Assembly: GCA_965247685.1 (NCBI GenBank) | Contig: OZ252021.1 | Coordinates: 930,001-962,000 of the forward strand | Length of the DNA: 32,000 nt | Reading direction: 5' to 3' | Source: Bdellovibrionales bacterium | GTDB lineage: Bacteria; Bdellovibrionota; Bdellovibrionia; Bdellovibrionales; UBA1609 | Part shown: positions 8,430-29,517 of the stretch, in pieces | How the letters are laid out: every line of letters starts with the position of its first letter | Position numbering within the stretch: the first letter of the stretch is position 1 | Translations under genes and position numbers: made by a program | Notes under the pieces: generated by a model | What the model was told of the DNA's origin: nothing | Databases searched by the model: none | What the model saw: the letters and a program-made list of their open reading frames with translations, nothing else

Positions 8430-9212
8430 ATGAGTGTCTATTGTCAATTTAAAAATACTGCTCCTTTTACAGTGGGCTCCCTTCGAGAGTTGGTGTGCCG
8501 TGGTGATTTTTCTTCTTTAAAACTTCCAATTCAGTTTCAGTTTCAAAATAAAAAATATGCTTTGCATATTTTAGAGGTTAAATCTTTTCAACCTCATGAA
8601 TTAATTCTGACTGTGACTAGTTATCAAGTGGGTTCTTATAAATTGCTTCCTGTTCAAATCACAGATGGTCAAACCACTGCTTTTGTAGAACCTTTATCTT
8701 GGGAGGTTTTCTCCGTTATAAAAGATGAAAAGCAGGCTCCTCACCCTCCTTATGGACCATGGATTCCTTCCCTTCCTTCTTGGTATTTTGGAGCTTGGGG
8801 AATTTTATCTCTTTTTATTTTAGGTTTTGTTTTTATGCGTATTAAAAACTGGAGAAAAAAAGAACAAATGATCCGTAGGGTTCAAGAAAGACTGGGAGAT
8901 TTAACTCCTTTGCAGTATTTTATTAAACAGATGAGTTATTTTATTTCTTATCAAAAATCTTCAAGTTCCGTAAAAGAAGACTTGGGAAGGCTTAATCAGT
9001 GTCTTCGAGAGTTTTTAGAAAATTATCTTTATATTTCCACTGAGGATTCTTTAAAGAATGTGTTTAAAAATGAGAAAATAAAATCGGATCAAAAAATCAC
9101 TCAAATTCTTTTAGAGTTGCAAAAATCTCTGGATAACCGTTATTCTAAAGAGGATGTGGAGCAATTATTGGATATGGTGCGCTCTTGGGTTTTTAAAGAA
9201 GGTAAAAAATGA
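8430..9212 (+). CDS. Hypothetical single-pass membrane protein of the Bat/MoxR operon
   Basis: 260-aa ORF with one TM helix (WYFGAWGILSLFILGFVFM) followed by RIKNWRKK and a helical, charged C-terminal half. It occupies the slot of the small TM protein usually found between DUF58 and batA. The stop overlaps the next start (ATGA at 9209). Confidence 0.6.
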   Translation: MSVYCQFKNTAPFTVGSLRELVCRGDFSSLKLPIQFQFQNKKYALHILEVKSFQPHELILTVTSYQVGSYKLLPVQITDGQTTAFVEPLSWEVFSVIKDEKQAPHPPYGPWIPSLPSWYFGAWGILSLFILGFVFMRIKNWRKKEQMIRRVQERLGDLTPLQYFIKQMSYFISYQKSSSSVKEDLGRLNQCLREFLENYLYISTEDSLKNVFKNEKIKSDQKITQILLELQKSLDNRYSKEDVEQLLDMVRSWVFKEGKK

Positions 9213-11620
9213 AAATAACTCGTTCAAAAGGTCTTCTCTCTATTTTTGGTATATTATTTATTCTAGGTTCTCTGACCATTTTTGGAATGGTGATGGGAGT
9301 TGGTCTTATGGTTCACCATAAGATCAATGTTCAAAATTCTGTAGATATTGGTGCCATGTATGCGGCTCAAAGGCAAGCTGAGACTCTCAGTGTTTTGTCT
9401 CATTTGAATTATCAGTTAAGACAAAACTACAAGCTTTTTTCATATCGATACAATGTTTTAGGAAATATAGGAGCTTATCAAAATCCAGGGGGCGCTACTG
9501 CAAACATGGATCTGATTGGTATAGTTCGACCAAGATCTGTTCCTTCTAAGAATAAAACTGTGTGTCCAAACACTCTTAGCGGATGTTCTACGGGAGCATT
9601 CGATCCTTCACCCATAACAGACTGTCATCAAGGTCACAGTCGTCAAAGTGGTTGCCCTTTCGCATTTTGTGTATGGCATCCTTATTTTGATATTCCAGGC
9701 AAAAACGGTACTGACAATGTTTGCCAGAGGGTTGATCAGCCATACGATCTTCCTCCACTAGCTGGTGGTAGTACTTACGGAGCTCGTTTTGCGAATGCAG
9801 AAGTCAGCAACAGGATAAGTAGTATAAGAGATTCCTGTAGGTATTCAGGTTACGTGAACTGGATGGTAGCTTCTACAACATATTTAAGTTTTTACGAAGA
9901 GCAGAAAAAAAGAAAGGAATTTATCAAAAAATATTTTAATGAAATTATTAGCAAAAAAAGAGAGCTTGGAGGGGCTTATATTGATGTGGGAGTGAAGAAT
10001 ACAATTACTAAGAATTTCACTTATCCTGTGTATGAGAGTTATAGGAGTAGAAATGGAATAATTTATACAAAGACCTCTAATGAGGGAAATTTTGATGAAT
10101 ATTTTGAATGGATAACAATTAACCCCCCTGATCTCGATTTGTTCTATGTTCAAGATAGAGGGAGAAACAATTCCCAAAGTGCTTGTGAAAGAGAGATCAA
10201 AACTATTTTTGAAATTTGTGAAGCTCAGACTTGTAGTTCAGGTACAAGTTGCAATCTGATTCAAAGGCATACTGATAATAGTAATAGCAATATATGTGAT
10301 GGCTTAAAGACAATCAAGAATGAACCAGTAGTGGTTGGTTTTATGAAAAAGCAAAATACACAGAATTTTTTTTACATCCAAATCTTTTTACATATTAATT
10401 ACAAGAGTGCGATATTTTTTCCTTTTAGGGAGCCTATTTCCTTGGTAGCAGAAGCTTACTCTAAGCCTTTTGGATCATCATTTGGTCCATATAAAAATGC
10501 ACTATTACCTACTATACCACCAACATCTAGATACCCTGTTTATTCGCTTAGTTTTGAGAGAGATGACGATAACTATGGTTTACTAGATGGTCAAAGACAG
10601 TATTATTTTAATAAGCTGATTCGAGAAATAATCGATCAAAATGGAGGAATAAGTCCTGGAGGAGGAACTGATGGAGCAAAAGATGCAGGCTTAAGTTTAC
10701 AAAACTATCAACAGCTCCATGGGCTCCATGATGTTAATAACAATAATTCTACCTCTGCTATGGTCTTACCTTACGAGGATGGTTCTTCTAATAATTATGT
10801 ACTGAAGAAAGATAAAATCTTTACTTTGCCTGCTCGTGTTTTAGAGGAGATAGCGATAGCTCCAGATGAGTATGATTTGAACCATTATGCGATTTTGCCT
10901 AACTATATGGTGAGTGCCTATATTCGTCTTATGGAAAGTAAAAATAATCGAGGTGATTATATATTTAACTATGTTCCAGCAGATATTGGTCATTATGCAG
11001 ATGAGGAGTTTTTAAACAAAATTAGGAATTCTCCTTCTCCCCTTTTTGCAGATGATCTGGGTCAAAAATACATGCAACATCTTCGGGCTCCTCCACCTTC
11101 TCTAAAGCCTCAAGGGTTCCTTGAAACAGGAAGTTATAAAATTCCTTTCTATCTGAACTATATTGAAAAACAAATAAACTGGGTGAATGTTATTCGTAAG
11201 GAATATTTTCAGCAGCTATCAAAAATTTTAGAGGAGGTTTATTTTAAGCTTTTTAATATCGATCACCTTCTTACTTCATGGGTTTCCAGTATGGACCCTC
11301 AAGGGCCGACACTCGATGATATATATCCACCTGCTCCAAATGTGATGGGTAATCGAGCAAAAGACTGCAAAGGTAATGATGTTCCCTTTCAATGTTGCCA
11401 TTTAAGAGATACAGAGCTTAAAACAGCTTCCTTAGTAGTCAAGCGTAGGAATGGCGTTCCTTATCTTAGATGGGATAGAAAACAGATCAACAGACATATT
11501 CTACATTTTTCTCATTGTATTGTGGGAGGAAGAACAGGTTTTTCGATTAAAATTATTGATCGAGAGTTTCCTGGAGTTCGAGACCTTTTACAAAATGAAA
11601 AAAGAAGTCACGGATTTTAA
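9209..11620 (+). CDS. Large Cys-rich envelope protein with a TadG/Tad_N-like N-terminal domain
   Basis: The N-terminus SKGLLSIFGILFILGSLTIFGMVMGVGLMVHHKINVQNSVDIGAMYAAQRQAE fits the TadG-type N-domain pattern (TM helix, then vD.g...lQ.aaDaaAlaa). 803 aa with clustered cysteines (for example CPNTLSGCSTG...CHQGH...GCPFAFCVW). No vWA MIDAS recognised. Confidence 0.6.
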   Translation: MKITRSKGLLSIFGILFILGSLTIFGMVMGVGLMVHHKINVQNSVDIGAMYAAQRQAETLSVLSHLNYQLRQNYKLFSYRYNVLGNIGAYQNPGGATANMDLIGIVRPRSVPSKNKTVCPNTLSGCSTGAFDPSPITDCHQGHSRQSGCPFAFCVWHPYFDIPGKNGTDNVCQRVDQPYDLPPLAGGSTYGARFANAEVSNRISSIRDSCRYSGYVNWMVASTTYLSFYEEQKKRKEFIKKYFNEIISKKRELGGAYIDVGVKNTITKNFTYPVYESYRSRNGIIYTKTSNEGNFDEYFEWITINPPDLDLFYVQDRGRNNSQSACEREIKTIFEICEAQTCSSGTSCNLIQRHTDNSNSNICDGLKTIKNEPVVVGFMKKQNTQNFFYIQIFLHINYKSAIFFPFREPISLVAEAYSKPFGSSFGPYKNALLPTIPPTSRYPVYSLSFERDDDNYGLLDGQRQYYFNKLIREIIDQNGGISPGGGTDGAKDAGLSLQNYQQLHGLHDVNNNNSTSAMVLPYEDGSSNNYVLKKDKIFTLPARVLEEIAIAPDEYDLNHYAILPNYMVSAYIRLMESKNNRGDYIFNYVPADIGHYADEEFLNKIRNSPSPLFADDLGQKYMQHLRAPPPSLKPQGFLETGSYKIPFYLNYIEKQINWVNVIRKEYFQQLSKILEEVYFKLFNIDHLLTSWVSSMDPQGPTLDDIYPPAPNVMGNRAKDCKGNDVPFQCCHLRDTELKTASLVVKRRNGVPYLRWDRKQINRHILHFSHCIVGGRTGFSIKIIDREFPGVRDLLQNEKRSHGF

Positions 11621-24274: not shown

Positions 24275-24961
24275 ATGACTGCTCAACCTATTTTAAAAGC
24301 TCGAAATATTCATAAGGAGTTTCACCAAGGCTCTCAAGTTTTACATGTACTCAAAGGCTTGGACTTTGAAATTCAGCAAGGGGATGCTGTATGTATTGTA
24401 GGTCCTTCAGGAGCAGGAAAGAGTACTTTTCTACATATTCTAGGTGTTTTAGAAGACAGCACTCAGGGAAGTGTATTTTATAAAACTCAAAACTTATCTC
24501 AATCCAACGAGAAAGATAAAGCTTTATTTCGAAGAAAAAAAGTTGGATTTGTGTTTCAATTTCACTATTTACTCAATGAGTTTAATATGATAGAGAATAT
24601 TATGATTGCTGGTCAAATCGGAGGAATGGAAGTTCAAGAGGCTCGACAAAGAGCTCAATATTTAATGGATCTTTTAGGTATCAGTCATCGTCAAGATCAT
24701 TTTCCTAATACTATGAGTGGTGGAGAAAGACAAAGGGCTGCGATTGCTCGTGCGATGATGAATCAACCTGAAATTTTATTAGTAGATGAACCTACGGGGA
24801 CGTTGGATAAAAAAAATTCCATTAAAGTATTAGATATTTTATTTGAGATGAAGGCGCGACTCTGTTTAACATTGGTTGCTGTCAGTCATGATCCTTTATT
24901 TTCAAAACCTTTCCCTAAAATTTTAACGATGGAAGATGGTCAATGGCTCAACAGCAAATGA
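24275..24961 (+). CDS. lolD: LolD/MacB-type ABC ATP-binding protein
   Basis: Walker A GPSGAGKST, signature MSGGERQRAAIARAM, Walker B LLVDEPTGTLD, 228 aa. No cognate LolC/E-type permease is present in the window. Confidence 0.75.
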   Translation: MTAQPILKARNIHKEFHQGSQVLHVLKGLDFEIQQGDAVCIVGPSGAGKSTFLHILGVLEDSTQGSVFYKTQNLSQSNEKDKALFRRKKVGFVFQFHYLLNEFNMIENIMIAGQIGGMEVQEARQRAQYLMDLLGISHRQDHFPNTMSGGERQRAAIARAMMNQPEILLVDEPTGTLDKKNSIKVLDILFEMKARLCLTLVAVSHDPLFSKPFPKILTMEDGQWLNSK

Positions 24962-27504
24962 ATCTGAACATTTCGAAATACTTAGGACTCTTTTTTGTAT
25001 TTGTACTGTGTGCAGAGGTGATGGCCTCTTCTGCGGTTTATCGAGTTCGTATTCAAGGTCAAAAAGAAATTACTCAACAGGCTATCCGTGGACAACTTCA
25101 AACTCGCTCAGGTCGAAAACTTCGTTCGACTGTGGTGACCGAAGATGTAAAACGTTTATATCAAATGGGTTATTTTAGTCATATTTCTGTAGATTCTCAT
25201 AAAGATGCTAAAGCTCGTCTCATTGTGACTTTCAAAGTGAAAGAAAAACCAAGGGTGAAATCTATAAGTTATAAAGGTTACTCTTCATTAACTAAGGCGA
25301 AGCTCGAAGAGATGTCTGAACTTAAAGAATATGAATTTTTGAGTATTATAAAATTAAAAACAGCTATTAAAAATATTGAAAATTATTATAAAGAAAAAGG
25401 GTATTTCTTAGCACAAGTCACCTACTCCTTGAAAGAAGTTCCATCCACTCGAAAAGTTGAAGTGGTGATTCATATTACAGAAGGAGAGAAGGCTTTAATA
25501 AAAAGAATTTTCTTTGTAGGTAATGAAAGTATTTCTAGTTCTCGATTGAAATCTTTTTTGATTAATAAGGAAAAAAGTATTTTTAGTTTTATTTCTGATT
25601 CTGGAACATACAAGGAAGAAAACTTGTCTAGAGATTTACAAGTGATCAAATTGATCTATATGGAACAGGGTTATATGGAAGCTTATGTGGGCGAGCCTCA
25701 AGTCACTTTATCTCCGGCACAAGATGGCATCTATATTACTTTTTTTATTCGAGAAGGATCTCAATTTAAAGTTGGGAACATTGATTTTACGGGGGATCTT
25801 ATTTTTTCTAAATCAGACCTTCAAAGGGTACTCTCTTTAAAAAATGGAGATACTTTTGTTTATTCCTATTTTCAAAAAGATTTATTGTCGCTGCAAAATA
25901 AGTATGGTGATGAGGGTTATGCTTTTACTAATGTGATTCCTCGATTTGCTTCGGTGGATGATGAAATACATATTTTATTTAAAATAGAAAAAGGAGATTT
26001 AGCTTCGATTAATCAAATCAATGTTATAGGTAATGACTATACTAGAGATAAAGTGATTCGAAGAGAAATTGGAGTTTATGAAGGAGAACTTTATAACTCT
26101 TCTCTTATTTCGGGGTCTCAGCAGGCGATACAACGGCTTGGTTATTTTGACAATGTTTCGATATTACCTCAGCCGGTAAAAAATCAAAATAATAAAATAG
26201 ATTTAGAGGTTTCAGTTAAAGAAAGAGAAACTTACGGCGAATTTGGTGGAGGTGTGAATTATCGGCAACAGGATGAGAAGTTTTGGAGTTTAGAAAATTT
26301 AGGTGTTAATGCTTCTCTTCATAAGCAAAACATTTTTGGTTTAGGTCAAACTATCCGAGGAAGTGCAAATTTGAATTTTGTGACCATTTGGTTGAATATT
26401 CAATATATAGATCCTCATATATTCGATTCAGATTGGTATGCTAGTTTCGAACTTTTTTATGAAAACTCAGAATTGAGCCAATCCTTAAGGACAAACTTAA
26501 AAGATTATTTAAGTGATTCGTCGTCTTCAAATAAAACTGCTCAAAATAATTCAGAAAAATCATCCGAAGAATCAGAGACAGATCATCCATATCCACTTCT
26601 TTCTGGAAGACCTTACATTATTGAACGAAGGGGTTTTCGATTTGCTTTAGGTTATTGGCTGAAAGATAAATGGAAAATACTGCCAAATGTAGGTTTTATG
26701 GATATGAATATGAGAGAATTGACAGAAAGTCTTTTGATAGGGGTTGGTTCCAGTGTTCGTGAAAGTTTTCAACTAGATGCCTCTGAGGGGTCTCGTGCTT
26801 TAATAGGAGGCTCTGTAGAGTATAATGGAAAAAATGACTCTCTTTTTCCTACAGAAGGGATTCATACTCGGTTGGCCTCAGATTATATTTATAAGTTCCC
26901 TTCTTCTGAATTTCATGCTGTCAATTTGTTCAAAATCGATGGGTTTTTCAGTCATTATGTGAATCTTCAGGATTTATTTTCCTACTTGAATCTAAGCTCT
27001 TTCAAATGGGCGAATTACTTGGCTCATGTCACATTAAAGAATAAGGTGCAGTATGGTCATGTGATCTCATTGGATTCAAATTCATTTATTCCTGTGGATC
27101 TTCTATATCTACTGGGAGGACCTTTAGATTTAAGAGGGTACTCTCTGCTTTCTATAGGAAAATCTATTCGTATTCCAAGACCTAATGGAGAGTTACCTCC
27201 TTATTCTGTTCCTTATGGAGGGGCTCAGCAATGGGTTTATAATTTAGAGTTGCAATTTCCTATTTTGTTAAGAAGCCGCCTTTATGGGATGCTATTTTTT
27301 GGTGTAGGACAAGCAGAGGATTTGTTATTTCAAAAAATTTTCAAAAAAGGCTGGAGTATTTTGAAAAAAGACGTTGGAGTGGGCATTTCTTGGGCTTCTC
27401 CCATGGGTCCTGTACACTTGAAACTTGGATTTCCCATTGGTGATAGTCAAAAAGATTTTTTTGAAGACAAAGAATTTCATTTCAATGTTGGCTATGACTT
27501 TTAG
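24943..27504 (+). CDS. bamA: Outer membrane protein assembly factor BamA (POTRA domains plus Omp85 beta-barrel)
   Basis: Signal peptide, then POTRA-like starts (VYRVRIQGQKEITQQAI, IKRIFFVGNESISSSRL, VGNIDFTGDLIFSKSDL, INQINVIGNDYTRDKVI). Barrel with a loop-6-type LDLRGY motif and a C-terminal FHFNVGYDF. The ATG at 24958 (ATGA overlap with the lolD stop) is an equally plausible start. Confidence 0.9.
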   Translation: MAQQQMNLNISKYLGLFFVFVLCAEVMASSAVYRVRIQGQKEITQQAIRGQLQTRSGRKLRSTVVTEDVKRLYQMGYFSHISVDSHKDAKARLIVTFKVKEKPRVKSISYKGYSSLTKAKLEEMSELKEYEFLSIIKLKTAIKNIENYYKEKGYFLAQVTYSLKEVPSTRKVEVVIHITEGEKALIKRIFFVGNESISSSRLKSFLINKEKSIFSFISDSGTYKEENLSRDLQVIKLIYMEQGYMEAYVGEPQVTLSPAQDGIYITFFIREGSQFKVGNIDFTGDLIFSKSDLQRVLSLKNGDTFVYSYFQKDLLSLQNKYGDEGYAFTNVIPRFASVDDEIHILFKIEKGDLASINQINVIGNDYTRDKVIRREIGVYEGELYNSSLISGSQQAIQRLGYFDNVSILPQPVKNQNNKIDLEVSVKERETYGEFGGGVNYRQQDEKFWSLENLGVNASLHKQNIFGLGQTIRGSANLNFVTIWLNIQYIDPHIFDSDWYASFELFYENSELSQSLRTNLKDYLSDSSSSNKTAQNNSEKSSEESETDHPYPLLSGRPYIIERRGFRFALGYWLKDKWKILPNVGFMDMNMRELTESLLIGVGSSVRESFQLDASEGSRALIGGSVEYNGKNDSLFPTEGIHTRLASDYIYKFPSSEFHAVNLFKIDGFFSHYVNLQDLFSYLNLSSFKWANYLAHVTLKNKVQYGHVISLDSNSFIPVDLLYLLGGPLDLRGYSLLSIGKSIRIPRPNGELPPYSVPYGGAQQWVYNLELQFPILLRSRLYGMLFFGVGQAEDLLFQKIFKKGWSILKKDVGVGISWASPMGPVHLKLGFPIGDSQKDFFEDKEFHFNVGYDF

Positions 27505-29138
27505 TTGATTTTTCTCATATTTTCGTTTAGCTTGTATTTTGATTTTTATAGGGGGAATGATAATGATAAAATATATTTTAATTTCTTTTTTAGTTCTTAA
27601 CTGTGCGTCCGTTTTTGCAAATGTAGGTTATGTTGATTTTGATCAAGTTTTGAAAAAAACTAAAGGTGGCAAGTCCATTAAAGAAAGAGAAACTCACGGC
27701 GAAATTGGCGTAGGTGTGAACTATCAGCAACGGGGTGAGAAGCTTGGGAGTGTAGAAAATTTTGGTGTTGAAGCTTTTCTTCGGCAAAACATCTTTGGTT
27801 TAGATCAAACTATCCGAGGAAGTGTCAATTTGAATTTTGTGACCACTTCGCTGAATGTTCAATATATAGATCCTCATATATTCGATTCAGATTGGTATGC
27901 TAGTTTCGAAGTTTTGTATGAAAACTCAAAGTGGAGCCAATCCTTAAGGACAAACTTAAAAGATTATTTAAATGATTCATCGTCTTCAAATAAAACTGCT
28001 CAAAATAATTTAGAAAATTCATCCGAAGAATCGGAGACAAATCATCCCTATCTACTTCTTTCTGGAAGACCTTACACTATTGAACGAAGGGGTTTTCGAT
28101 TTGCTTTAGGTTACTGGCTGAAAGATAAATGGAAAATACTGCCAAATGTAGGTTTTATGGATGTGAATATGAGAGAATTGGCAGAAAGTATTTCGATAGG
28201 GCTTGGTTCCAGTGTTCGTGAAAATTTTCAACTAGATGCCTCTGAGGGGTTTCGTGCTTTAATAGGAGGCTCTGTAGAGTATAATGGAAAAAATGACTCT
28301 CTTTTTCCTACAGAAGGGATTCATACTCGGTTGGTCTCAGACTATATTTATAAATTCCCTTCTTCTGAATTTCATGCTGTCAATTTGTTCAAAATCGATG
28401 GGTCTTTCAGTCATTATGTGAATCTTCAGGATTTATTTTCCTACTTGAATCTAAGCTCTTTCAAATGGGCGAATTACTTGGCTCATGTCACATTAAAGAA
28501 TAAGGTGCAGTATGGTCATGTGATCTCATTGGATTCAAATTCATTTATTCCTGTGGATCTTCTATATCTACTGGGAGGACCTTTAGATTTAAGAGGGTAC
28601 TCTCTGCTTTCTATAGGAAAATCTATTCGTATTCCAAGACCTAATGGAGAGTTACCTCCTTATTCTGTTCCTTATGGAGGGGCTCAGCAATGGGTTTATA
28701 ATTTAGAGTTGCAATTTCCTATTTTGTTAAGAAGTCGCCTTTATGGGATGCTATTTTTTGATGTAGGACAAGCAGATGATTTGTTATTTCAAAAAATTTT
28801 CAAAAAAGGCTGGAGTATTTTGAAAAAAGACGTTGGAGTGGGTGTTTCTTGGGCTTCTCCCATAGGTCCTTTACACTTGAAACTTGGATTTCCCATCGGT
28901 GATAGTCAAAAAGATTTTTTTGAAGACAAAGAATTTCATTTCAATATTAGCTATGATTTTTAGTTGATTTTTCTCATATTTTCGTTTAGCTTGTATTTTG
29001 ATTTTTTATAGGGGGAATGATAATGATAAAACATATTTTAATTTCTTTTTTGGTTCTTAACTGTGCGTCCGTTTTTGCAAATGTAGGTTATGTTGATTTT
29101 GATCAAGTTTTGAAAAAGACTAAAGGTGGCAAGTCCAT
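26218..29138. repeat. Direct tandem duplication, unit ~1.46 kb (copy A 26218-27679; copy B 27680-29138)
   Basis: Copy A is the bamA barrel-coding part, the 52-nt spacer and the first 41 codons of skp. Copy B repeats all of this collinearly. The offset is 1462 nt at the left edge, 1459 after a 3-nt deletion, and 1460 after a 1-nt spacer indel. It includes a 330-nt identical tract. Confidence 0.95.
27557..28963 (+). CDS. Chimeric Skp-leader::BamA-barrel protein (predicted POTRA-less Omp85-family outer membrane protein)
   Basis: The first 41 codons (MIMIKYILISFLVLNCASVFANVGYVDFDQVLKKTKGGKSI) are nearly identical to the skp 5' end. They are fused in frame at 27679/27680 to KERETHGEIGVGVNY..., homologous to BamA from the KERETYGEFGGGVNY segment to its C-terminus. 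Intact 468-aa frame with the same GGGGGA RBS as skp. The ORF-track TTG at 27539 is less likely. Confidence 0.8.
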   Translation: MIMIKYILISFLVLNCASVFANVGYVDFDQVLKKTKGGKSIKERETHGEIGVGVNYQQRGEKLGSVENFGVEAFLRQNIFGLDQTIRGSVNLNFVTTSLNVQYIDPHIFDSDWYASFEVLYENSKWSQSLRTNLKDYLNDSSSSNKTAQNNLENSSEESETNHPYLLLSGRPYTIERRGFRFALGYWLKDKWKILPNVGFMDVNMRELAESISIGLGSSVRENFQLDASEGFRALIGGSVEYNGKNDSLFPTEGIHTRLVSDYIYKFPSSEFHAVNLFKIDGSFSHYVNLQDLFSYLNLSSFKWANYLAHVTLKNKVQYGHVISLDSNSFIPVDLLYLLGGPLDLRGYSLLSIGKSIRIPRPNGELPPYSVPYGGAQQWVYNLELQFPILLRSRLYGMLFFDVGQADDLLFQKIFKKGWSILKKDVGVGVSWASPIGPLHLKLGFPIGDSQKDFFEDKEFHFNISYDF

Positions 29139-29517
29139 AACTAGTCGATTCGAAAAAGAAGTGATAAAAAAACAAGGTGAGTTACAAAAGCAAGAAAAAT
29201 CTATTCAAAAAGAAAAAGACAAATTAGACGCAGAAATTAATTTACTTTCTGATTCAGAAAAAAGAAACCGCGCACAAAAATTTCAAATGCGTATTGCAGG
29301 TTATGAAAGACTTAAGGTGAATTTTCAAAAAGAACTGAGTGAGTATCAACAAAAACTTGTTTTTGGGATTGTTAAAAATTTAAAACCTGTAGTTCGAAAA
29401 ATTGCTAAAGAGAAAAAATATACAGCAGTAAAAAGGCTTTCTCCAGATACTTTGTGGGTGGATCCTTCTTTGGATATAACTAAAGAAGTCATTAAGGCCT
29501 ACAATAAGAAGTATTAA
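29017..29517 (+). CDS. skp: Skp/OmpH-family periplasmic chaperone
   Basis: Signal peptide ILISFLVLNCASVFA. About 145-aa mature protein rich in K/E/Q coiled-coil sequence (FEKEVIKKQGELQKQEKSIQKEKDKLDAEINLL). Classic position downstream of bamA. Confidence 0.8.
   Translation: MIMIKHILISFLVLNCASVFANVGYVDFDQVLKKTKGGKSITSRFEKEVIKKQGELQKQEKSIQKEKDKLDAEINLLSDSEKRNRAQKFQMRIAGYERLKVNFQKELSEYQQKLVFGIVKNLKPVVRKIAKEKKYTAVKRLSPDTLWVDPSLDITKEVIKAYNKKY

Follow-up and report, generated by a model that had tools for sequence, protein, structure and literature searches.

A chimeric gene, skp'-'bamA, lies between bamA and skp in the window analysed here, a stretch of 32,000 nt (27563-28963, 466 amino acids plus stop; this and all other features below are on the + strand), and is a genuine, intact and lineage-specific gene. 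Its product joins a putative Sec-type leader borrowed from Skp to a complete, POTRA-less Omp85 barrel of 16 predicted strands, an architecture that the sequence-only reading had proposed and that Pfam, AlphaFold and sequence comparison bear out. Judging from the signals in the DNA, the gene is probably expressed. It may be new in function as well (a porin, decoy or modulator), and any benefit to the cell is hypothetical. The explanation we favour, with a probability of about one half, is that the chimera is an expressed, tolerated passenger of a duplication.

Origin of the chimeric gene

The open reading frame spans 27557-28963 (468 amino acids) and, as had been claimed, is uninterrupted in spite of dozens of substitutions: relative to the BamA barrel there are 44 amino acid differences and 62 nucleotide substitutions, and the only indel relative to bamA is a 3-nt in-frame deletion that removes His460. 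The likelier start is the ATG at 27563, six bases past the Shine-Dalgarno sequence, which lines up with the Skp starts in relatives and gives the product of the public gene call P0001 (466 amino acids, on a 1.28-Mb contig); the start at 27557 adds two residues. From Lys42 onward the 468-residue chimera is collinear with BamA residues 426-853, and its barrel is 89.7% identical to that of the resident BamA. The first 41 residues of this frame (MIMIKYILISFLVLNCASVFA followed by NVGYVDFDQVLKKTKGGKSI) reproduce the beginning of skp, at 29017. Peptides specific to the chimera are, for instance, THGEIGVGVNYQQR and, at the junction, SIKER.

Positions 26218-27679 are repeated in tandem at 27680-29139 (1.46 kb, 95.6% identity, repeats spaced 1459-1462 nt), and the full alignment of the two copies has 65 substitutions and 2 indels in 1463 columns. 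Copy A (26218-27679) holds bamA codons 426-853, then the spacer of 58 nt and the 39 skp-type codons that open the chimera; in copy B (27680-29139) the barrel of the chimera is followed by the spacer and by the beginning of the genuine skp. At the junction (27679/27680), skp codon 39 (Ile) is joined in frame to bamA codon 426 (Lys, in the KERET hinge), and the breakpoint lies exactly at the hinge between POTRA5 and the barrel. Direct reading of the three sequences gives a microhomology of ~1 nt. The gene originated by an illegitimate tandem duplication with this ~1-nt microhomology, reaching from the POTRA5/barrel hinge of bamA to skp codon 39.

Both parents are present alongside. The barrel parent is the resident full-length bamA (24943-27504, 853 amino acids), in which Pfam finds five POTRA stretches and the Omp85 domain and which scores 481 bits against TIGR03303 (cutoff 297). 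The leader donor is the resident skp (29023-29517), which is intact, matches Pfam OmpH with 91 bits and is syntenic with the skp of relatives. The chimera holds only the first 39 residues of Skp and has no Pfam match to the OmpH domain (PF03938). The surrounding genes form the array lolD-bamA-skp-ribF, and the host is a small-genome Bdellovibrio-like bacterium.

In six related genomes bamA adjoins skp with nothing between them, in agreement with the proposal of a recent skp/bamA chimera, and the gene is therefore lineage-specific. Neither a search for chimeras nor profile searching across 5.8 billion proteins returned anything but the self match, and an exact-sequence contig look-up of P0001 gave no match. 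Two scans of GTDB genomes recovered only BamA proteins of 20-28% identity and two scans of JGI metagenomes recovered nothing; as these scans yielded no close relatives, they could not have shown another chimera. Two candidate POTRA-less relatives, P0034 and P0037, were rejected: each is a bamA gene interrupted by frameshifts, and the assemblies have low coverage and many other broken genes nearby. Neither Rfam nor tRNA scans gave a match in the window, and the literature searched holds no report of a bamA-skp duplication.

Expression signals, leader and barrel

The duplicated bamA-skp spacer (27505-27562) carries a promoter-like motif, TTGATT-N17-TAGCTT (27505-27533), and the Shine-Dalgarno sequence AGGGGGA (27550-27556). 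The earlier observation that the ribosome-binding site of skp had been copied is thus correct, the copy including the whole 58-nt spacer. A second copy of the promoter-like motif is at 28964-28992, and TTGATT-N17-TAGnnT together with a G-rich Shine-Dalgarno sequence is kept in the spacers of four relatives. A generic promoter scan gave only background-level signal, and neither spacer contains terminator-like sites.

The leader MIKYILISFLVLNCASVFA (27563-27619) is a copy of that of the resident Skp, from which it differs only at position 4, where the chimera has Tyr, the ancestral state, and skp has His. By eye it divides into MIK, YILISFLVLNCASVF and VFA, followed by N; residues 4-18 have a mean Kyte-Doolittle value of 2.15, and the same n-h-c layout with an A-F-A/S site is found in Skp of four relatives. 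Of the Sec signal peptide suggested from the sequence, the copied leader and the small residues before the site stand, and cleavage after VFA is a prediction only. A lipobox reading was ruled out, with Asn before the Cys and the Cys unconserved. Downstream of the predicted cut, 20 residues of the mature Skp N-terminus (NVGYVDFDQVLKKTKGGKSI; 27620-27679) form a short periplasmic tail that is modelled at low confidence by AlphaFold (pLDDT 53-64). The periplasmic stub as a whole has 26 residues and follows a leader of 19.

The hinge and 16 predicted strands of the barrel occupy 27680-28960. The only Pfam match in the chimera is the Omp85 barrel (PF01103, residues 78-468, 124.2 bits against a cutoff of 24), confirming the absence of POTRA domains, and against TIGR03303 it scores 111.8 bits (cutoff 297.15), over model positions 391-741 only. 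AlphaFold predicts 16 strands (pLDDT 83.9, pTM 0.82), with the same topology and confidence profile as in the model of the parental barrel, and the best Foldseek matches in the PDB are the barrels of BamA and TamA. Structure prediction was discarded as a test of barrel closure, since chimera and parent behave alike, both with low confidence in strands 1-2, and the result does not discriminate.

The LDLRGY and C-terminal FHFNISYDF motifs were both found, as reported earlier. The loop-6 lid motif, as defined previously (PMC4490367, PMC11358297), is present as LRGY (28589-28600, residues 343-346), with the Arg in 84/84 and the Gly in 83/84 aligned homologues. Relative to the signature (V/I)RG(Y/F) it begins with Leu, as do 48 of 86 homologues and the motif in Leptospira (PMC11358297). 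The Asp of the strand-13 motif (F/G)xDxG pairs with the loop-6 Arg to form the lid lock (PMC4490367); it is kept in the chimera as FFDVG (FxDxG, 28754-28768), and Asp or Glu occurs there in 84/84 aligned homologues. The resident BamA instead reads FFGVG, with Gly (27301-27303) in place of the lid-lock Asp, the lone case among 86 homologues. The beta-signal-like C-terminal motif (28934-28960) ends in Phe, and its Gly, present in 78 of the 86 homologues, has become Ser, a residue seen in one other. This G850S change is one of two replacements of near-universal glycines in the chimera, the other being G468D in the turn after strand 2.

The tandem duplication put the whole BamA barrel, in frame, downstream of a second spacer and a second Skp leader. 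The most likely path from there to a membrane protein can be sketched. Transcription would run together with that of lolD, bamA, skp and ribF, begin at the copied spacer motif, or both, and translation would start at the duplicated Shine-Dalgarno sequence. After Sec export and cleavage after VFA, the C-terminal motif would cause the protein to be handled as an ordinary BAM substrate, and the end state would be a free 16-strand BamA-like barrel with its 26-residue periplasmic stub. Lacking POTRA domains, the chimera cannot dock lipoproteins or take substrates in the manner of BamA, and so is not a second BamA.

Divergence, gene conversion and competing explanations

Divergence falls away from the junction, with differences per 100 nt that begin 15, 12, 6, 7, 3. 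The fast-diverged third on the gate side (27680-28200; 12-15% nucleotide divergence near the junction) covers strands 1-7 and loops L1-L3, and L1 is the only heavily changed loop. Polarisation of the changes assigned 22 to the chimera and 0 to BamA in the N-terminal third, 4 and 7, respectively, in codons 601-853 (Fisher P = 8e-5 for the contrast), and 26 and 7 in the whole barrel (relative-rate chi-square 10.9, P = 0.0009). The N-terminal replacements, among them W448G, W483S and G468D, together with a one-residue deletion within strand 2, are as radical as random mutations (P = 0.33), whereas those in the C-terminal part are more conservative than random mutation would give (P = 0.02). The pairwise dN/dS between chimera and BamA is 0.74, with values of 0.82-0.93 for the first 245 codons. 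On the chimera branch it is ~0.9-1.2 if the two branches have equal dS (outgroups resolved 8 of 14 synonymous changes, split 4:4). A foreign source of the diverged 5' barrel segment was ruled out (dN/dS ~0.9; derived states that match no outgroup), and mutagenic repair synthesis at the duplication, a possible cause of the 15% divergence, was dropped as an inference from its magnitude. Diversifying selection on surface loops was likewise rejected, with no overall enrichment in loops (17 of the 44 differences) and L5-L8 identical.

Synonymous and non-synonymous divergence drop together along the repeat unit. A 330-nt tract (28405-28734) covering strand 11, loop 6 and strand 12 is identical to bamA 26946-27275; it is the longest identical run, and 0 of 100,000 uniform placements of the differences gave one as long (P < 1e-5). 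This pattern indicates that gene conversion probably took place between the chimera and bamA. The intact frame had been taken as a sign of selection, a view that did not hold up: in simulations, 40-45 random substitutions leave the frame stop-free in 16-19% of cases (P = 0.16-0.19), and the evidence is weakened further because gene conversion from bamA also mends part of the frame. Some constraint on the chimera is nevertheless suggested by the sequence comparisons, with the C-terminal 60% no faster than BamA and the lid-lock motifs intact. Changes in the chimera fall on outgroup-invariant sites in 24% of cases against 43% expected (whole barrel, P = 0.03), and a neutral chimera is rejected for codons 601-853 unless the dN/dS of BamA is at least 0.5 (P < 0.005 at 0.3 or less).

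An origin of the chimera in the metagenome assembler, which would have joined two strain haplotypes of the bamA-skp region head to tail, would accord with a gene seen once in public data, apparently from one 1.28-Mb contig. We regard such an artefact as highly improbable: the junction unites non-homologous sequence in frame (skp codon 39 and bamA codon 426), a second haplotype is absent from the flanks, and a gradient from 15% to 0% divergence with dN/dS near 1 and radical replacements of conserved residues is unlike two functional alleles of an essential single-copy gene. A real gene could be a tolerated passenger, and with equal odds for and against we picture it as a young paralogue in limbo, whose strands 1-7 have drifted at the neutral rate and whose remainder stays BamA-like mainly via conversion; the duplication may persist since the upstream region of skp was also doubled. 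Several results sit uneasily with drift, namely the smaller number of derived replacements in the chimera than in the essential BamA over codons 601-853, the avoidance of outgroup-invariant sites, the retention of the lid-lock Arg and Asp and of the ancestral Tyr of the leader, and the lack of any frameshift in spite of eight 6-7-nt homopolymers, when an indel of 1 nt has already arisen in the 58-nt spacer. Unselected tandem duplications in bacteria generally collapse fast by recombination, and this one has lasted to a synonymous divergence of 0.06-0.14 although recombination between the copies is evidently active. A second explanation, which we consider possible but clearly less probable, is that the POTRA-less barrel is itself useful, either by mimicking BamA at the surface or serving as its decoy, or as a noNterm-type accessory barrel that thins the membrane. 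Its details are equally tentative: loops L4-L8 would be held BamA-like by conversion and purifying selection, and the gate strands would diverge with their insertase duties gone. The strong contrast between 4:7 and 22:0, the conservative C-terminal replacements, loops L5-L8 that are the same as in BamA, the intact signal peptide, frame and lid-lock motifs and, partly by inference, the survival of the duplication all point this way, as do the Leptospira noNterm Omp85 proteins, which are expressed and matter (PMC11358297), and Sam50/Tob55, which works without POTRA (PMC4104836, PMC5159795). A branch dN/dS of ~1, random-looking N-terminal replacements with the strand-2 deletion, the loss of the near-universal Gly of the C-terminal motif and the occurrence in one genome only argue against it, and the C-terminal asymmetry amounts to 11 changes, which a compensatory burst in BamA around D787G could also yield.

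The unusual state of the resident BamA raises the further idea that the two proteins act jointly, for example by pairing laterally as two Sam50 barrels do in the SAM complex of mitochondria, with the properties of the barrel split between them. Each copy has its own defect at a near-universal site, the chimera keeps the Asp for which the resident BamA, alone among 86 homologues, has substituted Gly where Asp or Glu is otherwise found, and the BamA-derived changes cluster in strands 13, 14 and 16 near the lid-lock motif. If this were true, an essential insertase would have been caught dividing the functions of its barrel over two copies, one with POTRA domains and one a free barrel. Such a partnership is unlikely in our estimation, given that D787G may have been fixed by drift and then compensated, in a lineage of small genomes, and that POTRA domains are essential in E. 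coli (PMC3871556), making the chimera no substitute for BamA. We attach similarly little credence to the specific form in which the chimera is the second half of a two-barrel BAM core, through lateral pairing or with its N-terminal strand, of Skp origin, offering Skp a handle. That the chimera is a tolerated passenger remains the explanation we prefer.

Relation to known Omp85 proteins

POTRA-less Omp85 proteins are, as the sequence-only reading had stated, a known class, the 'noNterm' Omp85 (Heinz & Lithgow 2014, PMC4104836; Leptospira LIC12252/12254/12258, PMC11358297), and the birth event at bamA-skp adds a legible case of that type. The chimera resembles them in its predicted signal peptide, its stub (26 residues here, 22-43 in Leptospira, PMC11358297), its predicted 16-strand barrel without POTRA, a loop-6 motif of the (L/M)RG(W/Y) type, the strand-13 Asp and a canonical BamA alongside. 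Those proteins are old and diverged, form sequence groups of their own and lie at separate loci, whereas the chimera has 90% of its barrel sequence in common with BamA, stands in tandem with it, still swaps sequence with it and has its leader from Skp. Expression and a phenotype have been shown for the Leptospira proteins (PMC11358297); the chimera is known from sequence alone. Common descent with the noNterm clusters (Heinz & Lithgow; Bettin et al.) appears unlikely because the resident BamA is by far the nearest relative (90% identity).

BamA typically has five N-terminal POTRA domains, of which POTRA5 docks BamD (TIGR03303 equivalog). With BamA the chimera has in common the barrel type, the KERET hinge, loop 6, the lid lock and the C-terminal motif; it differs in lacking POTRA domains, in its TIGR03303 score below the cutoff and in its heavily altered strands 1-5 and loop L1. 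Plant Toc75-IV and OEP80tr also are POTRA-less, inserted in the outer membrane and derived by partial duplication of a full-length Omp85, retaining only sequence that corresponds to the last strand of the last POTRA where the chimera retains the KERET hinge; unlike the chimera they are old eukaryotic proteins that lack a borrowed signal peptide and are inserted without processing, and knockout of Toc75-IV has a mild phenotype (PMC4195282). POTRA-less Sam50/Tob55 likewise is an Omp85 barrel, and one that inserts substrates (Stroud 2011 as cited in PMC4104836; PMC5159795), but as an engineered truncation inside the SAM complex, and bacterial viability needs at least one POTRA (PMC5159795, PMC3871556). 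Klebsiella BamK resembles the chimera in being an additional BamA-like gene that accompanies the essential one in a restricted lineage, but it is non-chimeric, is full length with POTRA and can replace BamA (PMC13059784). The Drosophila chimeras formed at tandem-duplication breakpoints offer the parallel of a fusion frame at the junction with both parents intact; such chimeras have mostly been described from eukaryotes (PMC4069613), and the one described here captures a putative Sec leader and the complete barrel of an essential bacterial gene.

Although Omp85 barrels lacking POTRA domains are widespread, their origin and role are obscure; here one birth can be read base by base, with the intact parents alongside, the breakpoint at the hinge and a putative Sec leader taken from the neighbouring chaperone gene. 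The locus also serves as a natural experiment that tells where insertase function constrains the BamA barrel, with the gate-side strands freed at once upon POTRA loss and the lid-lock side conserved. If the product is made, it would provide a handle on the tolerance of a free BamA barrel and on the titration of BAM or of BamA-targeting agents and, given the lost lid-lock Asp of the resident BamA, on whether an essential BamA can relax beside the chimera.

Structure and origin of the chimera

A lineage-specific tandem duplication fused skp and bamA in frame into a chimera whose leader is intact and whose barrel is complete. In the window, bamA (24943-27504; 853 aa, five POTRA stretches and Omp85 in Pfam), the chimeric ORF first listed at 27557-28963 (Omp85 alone at 124 bits, no POTRA) and skp (29017-29517; OmpH) are three neighbouring genes on the + strand. 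A repeat search and full alignment revealed a head-to-tail duplication (26218-27679 and 27680-29139, 95.6% identity); across 1463 alignment columns its copies differ by 65 substitutions and by two indels, of 3 nt and 1 nt. Each copy is made up of codons 426-853 of bamA, the 58-nt spacer between bamA and skp, and skp codons 1-39, and at the junction, where GGCAAGTCCAT meets TAAAGAAAGAG, skp codon 39 runs in frame into bamA codon 426 with ~1 nt of microhomology. Together with the Pfam matches, these analyses bore out every sequence statement of the sequence-only reading, including the POTRA-less Omp85 barrel and the borrowed Skp leader with a copy of its ribosome-binding site. The frame it had described is indeed open, but the ATG at 27563 is a better start, lying six bases past AGGGGGA, aligning with the Skp starts of relatives and giving the 466-aa public call P0001.

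Relatives share the gene order ABC transporter, DUF4340 protein, lolD-like gene, bamA, skp, ribF, pilB. In the loci compared, four complete (L001, L016, L017, L018) and two fragmented (L014, L015), skp directly follows bamA with nothing between. The BamA proteins of relatives are 55-64% identical to the chimera, and the nearest of the relatives compared (MoxR 92% identical) is without it, indicating that the duplication is younger than the split from that relative. No orthologous chimera turned up among the relatives, and a second skp-bamA chimera was not found in two protein searches; neither GTDB genomes nor JGI metagenomes, when scanned, gave close relatives. The chimera is known from one genome, and the exact BamA and chimera sequences are present together on one contig in public data. 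For the MoxR of the window, the best named matches are 'Bdellovibrionales bacterium' MAGs (77% identity).

In the whole 32 kb (1-32000; G+C 35%), neither tRNA genes nor Rfam families at gathering score were found. Co-directional envelope genes are densely packed there (M16 peptidases, DegP, MoxR/Bat, MltD-like, gliding-type ABC, BamA, Skp), and within an envelope-related moxR, VWA, batD-type cluster an ORF of 803 aa (9209-11620) is without a Pfam match (E <= 1e-5). The lolD-like ABC ATPase gene (24275-24961) overlaps the bamA start (24943) by 19 nt, as also seen in relatives (e.g. L001, 7336-8013 and 8001), an arrangement suggestive of translational coupling between bamA and an ATPase of lipoprotein-sorting type.

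Predicted product and expression signals

The chimera consists of the Skp leader, twenty mature-Skp residues, a KERET hinge that in BamA is the end of POTRA5, and the whole barrel. The leader, MIKYILISFLVLNCASVFA, combines a basic n-region with a hydrophobic core of 15 residues and a V-F-A site, a layout kept in four orthologous Skp proteins. Its Tyr4 (27572-27574), in place of the His4 of the true skp (29032-29034), is also found in the Skp of two relatives, and thus the state kept in the chimera copy is ancestral and that of the parent skp derived. AlphaFold, run with an 88-sequence alignment, predicted 16 strands (pLDDT 83.9, pTM 0.82), the same as for the parental barrel modelled likewise (86.2 and 0.83); strands 1-2 had lower confidence (65-72) in both, and the best PDB matches were TamA and BamA barrels. 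The proposed structural check therefore gave no sign of lost foldability, which such a model could hardly detect. Both signature motifs of Omp85 that make up the lid lock (PMC4490367) occur in the chimera, LRGY in loop 6 and FFDVG in strand 13, and the C-terminus, FHFNISYDF, is retained as claimed. The product would be exported by Sec and inserted BAM-dependently as a free barrel. Loop L3 of both barrels (~26500-26560 and 27960-28020) carries a Ser/Asn/Glu-rich low-complexity insertion, extracellular and with pLDDT below 50; a similar one occurs in the nearest relative's protein (P0006) and is missing in P0002 and P0007.

A TTGATT-N17-TAGnnT motif followed by a G-rich Shine-Dalgarno site was found in the bamA-skp spacer of all five genomes, this one and four relatives (L016 8575-8633, L001 10461-10512, L017 6521-6577, L018 6470-6526), whose BamA proteins are only 55-70% identical. 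Both elements are duplicated in the window (27505-27533 and 28964-28992); the motif, of which this genome thus has two copies, probably serves as the skp promoter. As neither copy of the spacer contains a terminator-like hairpin, the chimera is part of a co-directional array and has a copy of its own of any signals that drive skp; judging from these signals, its transcription and translation would be the default expectation.

Divergence of the two barrels and ongoing exchange

Between the two barrels we counted 16.5 synonymous and 45.5 non-synonymous differences (dS 0.063, dN 0.047), and the suggested comparison with bamA gave a pairwise dN/dS of 0.74. Differences per 100 nt from the junction run 15, 12, 6, 7, 3, 6, 3, 1, 0, 0, 2, 5, 4, 3, 2, with an identical 330-nt tract (26946-27275 and 28405-28734; P < 1e-5 under uniformity). 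Synonymous and non-synonymous divergence drop in parallel along the repeat unit, and the gradient thus reflects time since the last homogenisation by gene conversion, not local selection alone. Sequence exchange with bamA is ongoing.

Polarising the amino-acid differences with four outgroups assigned 26 to the chimera and 7 to BamA over the whole barrel (codons 426-853), with 11 ambiguous (relative-rate test, P = 0.0009). The corresponding counts were 22, 0 and 10 for codons 426-600 and 4, 7 and 1 for codons 601-853 (Fisher P = 8e-5 for the contrast), and resolvable synonymous changes split 4:4 between chimera and BamA. The gate-side third has diverged at a neutral rate, in the chimera only. 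Replacements in the N-terminal part match random single-nucleotide mutations in how radical they are (mean BLOSUM -0.19 vs -0.33, P = 0.33) and include W448G, W483S, G468D, P551L and one residue lost inside strand 2. In the C-terminal part, replacements are conservative beyond random expectation (P = 0.02), and 24% of chimera changes fall at outgroup-invariant sites, against 43% expected (P = 0.03). The chimera lacks the near-universal Gly468 of the NxxGxG turn and Gly850 of the C-terminal motif (Gly in 77/86 and 78/86 homologues, respectively). At the strand-13 lid-lock position, Asp in 79 and Glu in 5 of 84 aligned homologues, the chimera has Asp and the resident BamA Gly (FFGVG; GGT at 27301-27303, codon 787); further BamA-derived changes, D792E, V815I and I849V, lie in neighbouring strands 13, 14 and 16.

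Branch dN/dS, assuming equal branch dS, is ~0.9-1.2 for the chimera and ~0.2 for BamA. The interpretation in the sequence-only reading finds partial support: the recent chimera stands, and a new gene in the functional sense would be a possibility. The uninterrupted frame does not by itself point to selection, since a frame would stay stop-free after 40-45 random substitutions with a probability of 0.16-0.19. Eight homopolymer runs in the chimera are without frameshift; the spacer copies are already a 1-nt indel apart.

Interpretation and relation to known Omp85 proteins

We judge it slightly likelier that the chimera protein is a tolerated passenger (probability about 0.5) than that it is selected. 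As a passenger, it would be held BamA-like by gene conversion, and the duplication may persist by doubling the skp upstream region. Selection on the protein itself, though a less favoured possibility, is not a weak one: a neutral chimera is rejected by the 4:7 split in the C-terminal part if the dN/dS of BamA itself there lies below 0.5. Also on the side of selection, tandem duplications without it normally collapse fast where recombination is active, as it is here, and an unselected one would be expected to be lost. A compensatory burst in BamA after D787G could mimic the 4:7 pattern. It seems improbable that the two barrels work as partners, with the lid-lock function passed from BamA to the free barrel. 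An assembly artefact is very unlikely, since the sequences meeting at the junction are not homologous and the copies do not diverge in the way of two functional alleles. POTRA domains are essential in E. coli (PMC3871556, PMC5159795), and the chimera, having none, cannot act as BamA does there.

By architecture the chimera matches the POTRA-less noNterm Omp85 class defined by Heinz & Lithgow (PMC4104836). Paralogues of this class in Leptospira have a periplasmic stub of 22-43 residues and an (L/M)RG(W/Y) motif, and a colonisation phenotype is known for them (PMC11358297). The chimera descends from a BamA barrel (90% identity to the resident BamA) and probably does not belong to those old clusters; on POTRA content and score (112 bits vs a 297-bit cutoff) it falls outside the BamA family. 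In mode of origin it comes closest to the truncated plant paralogues Toc75-IV and OEP80tr, which retain only the last POTRA strand (PMC4195282). Two public 'POTRA-less Omp85' calls in related genomes, P0034 (461 aa; L014 5500-8015) and P0037 (345 aa; L015 6505-9038), were rejected as artefacts, being bamA split by frameshifts in low-coverage long-read assemblies with many neighbouring genes also broken; database surveys could take such calls for noNterm Omp85. That a tandem duplication gives rise to a fusion ORF at its breakpoint is textbook knowledge of gene birth; in the literature we found no report of this yielding an Omp85 barrel with a chaperone-derived leader, in agreement with the sequence-only reading. 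The event can be traced with unusual clarity and prompts testable questions on the constraints acting on the BamA barrel.
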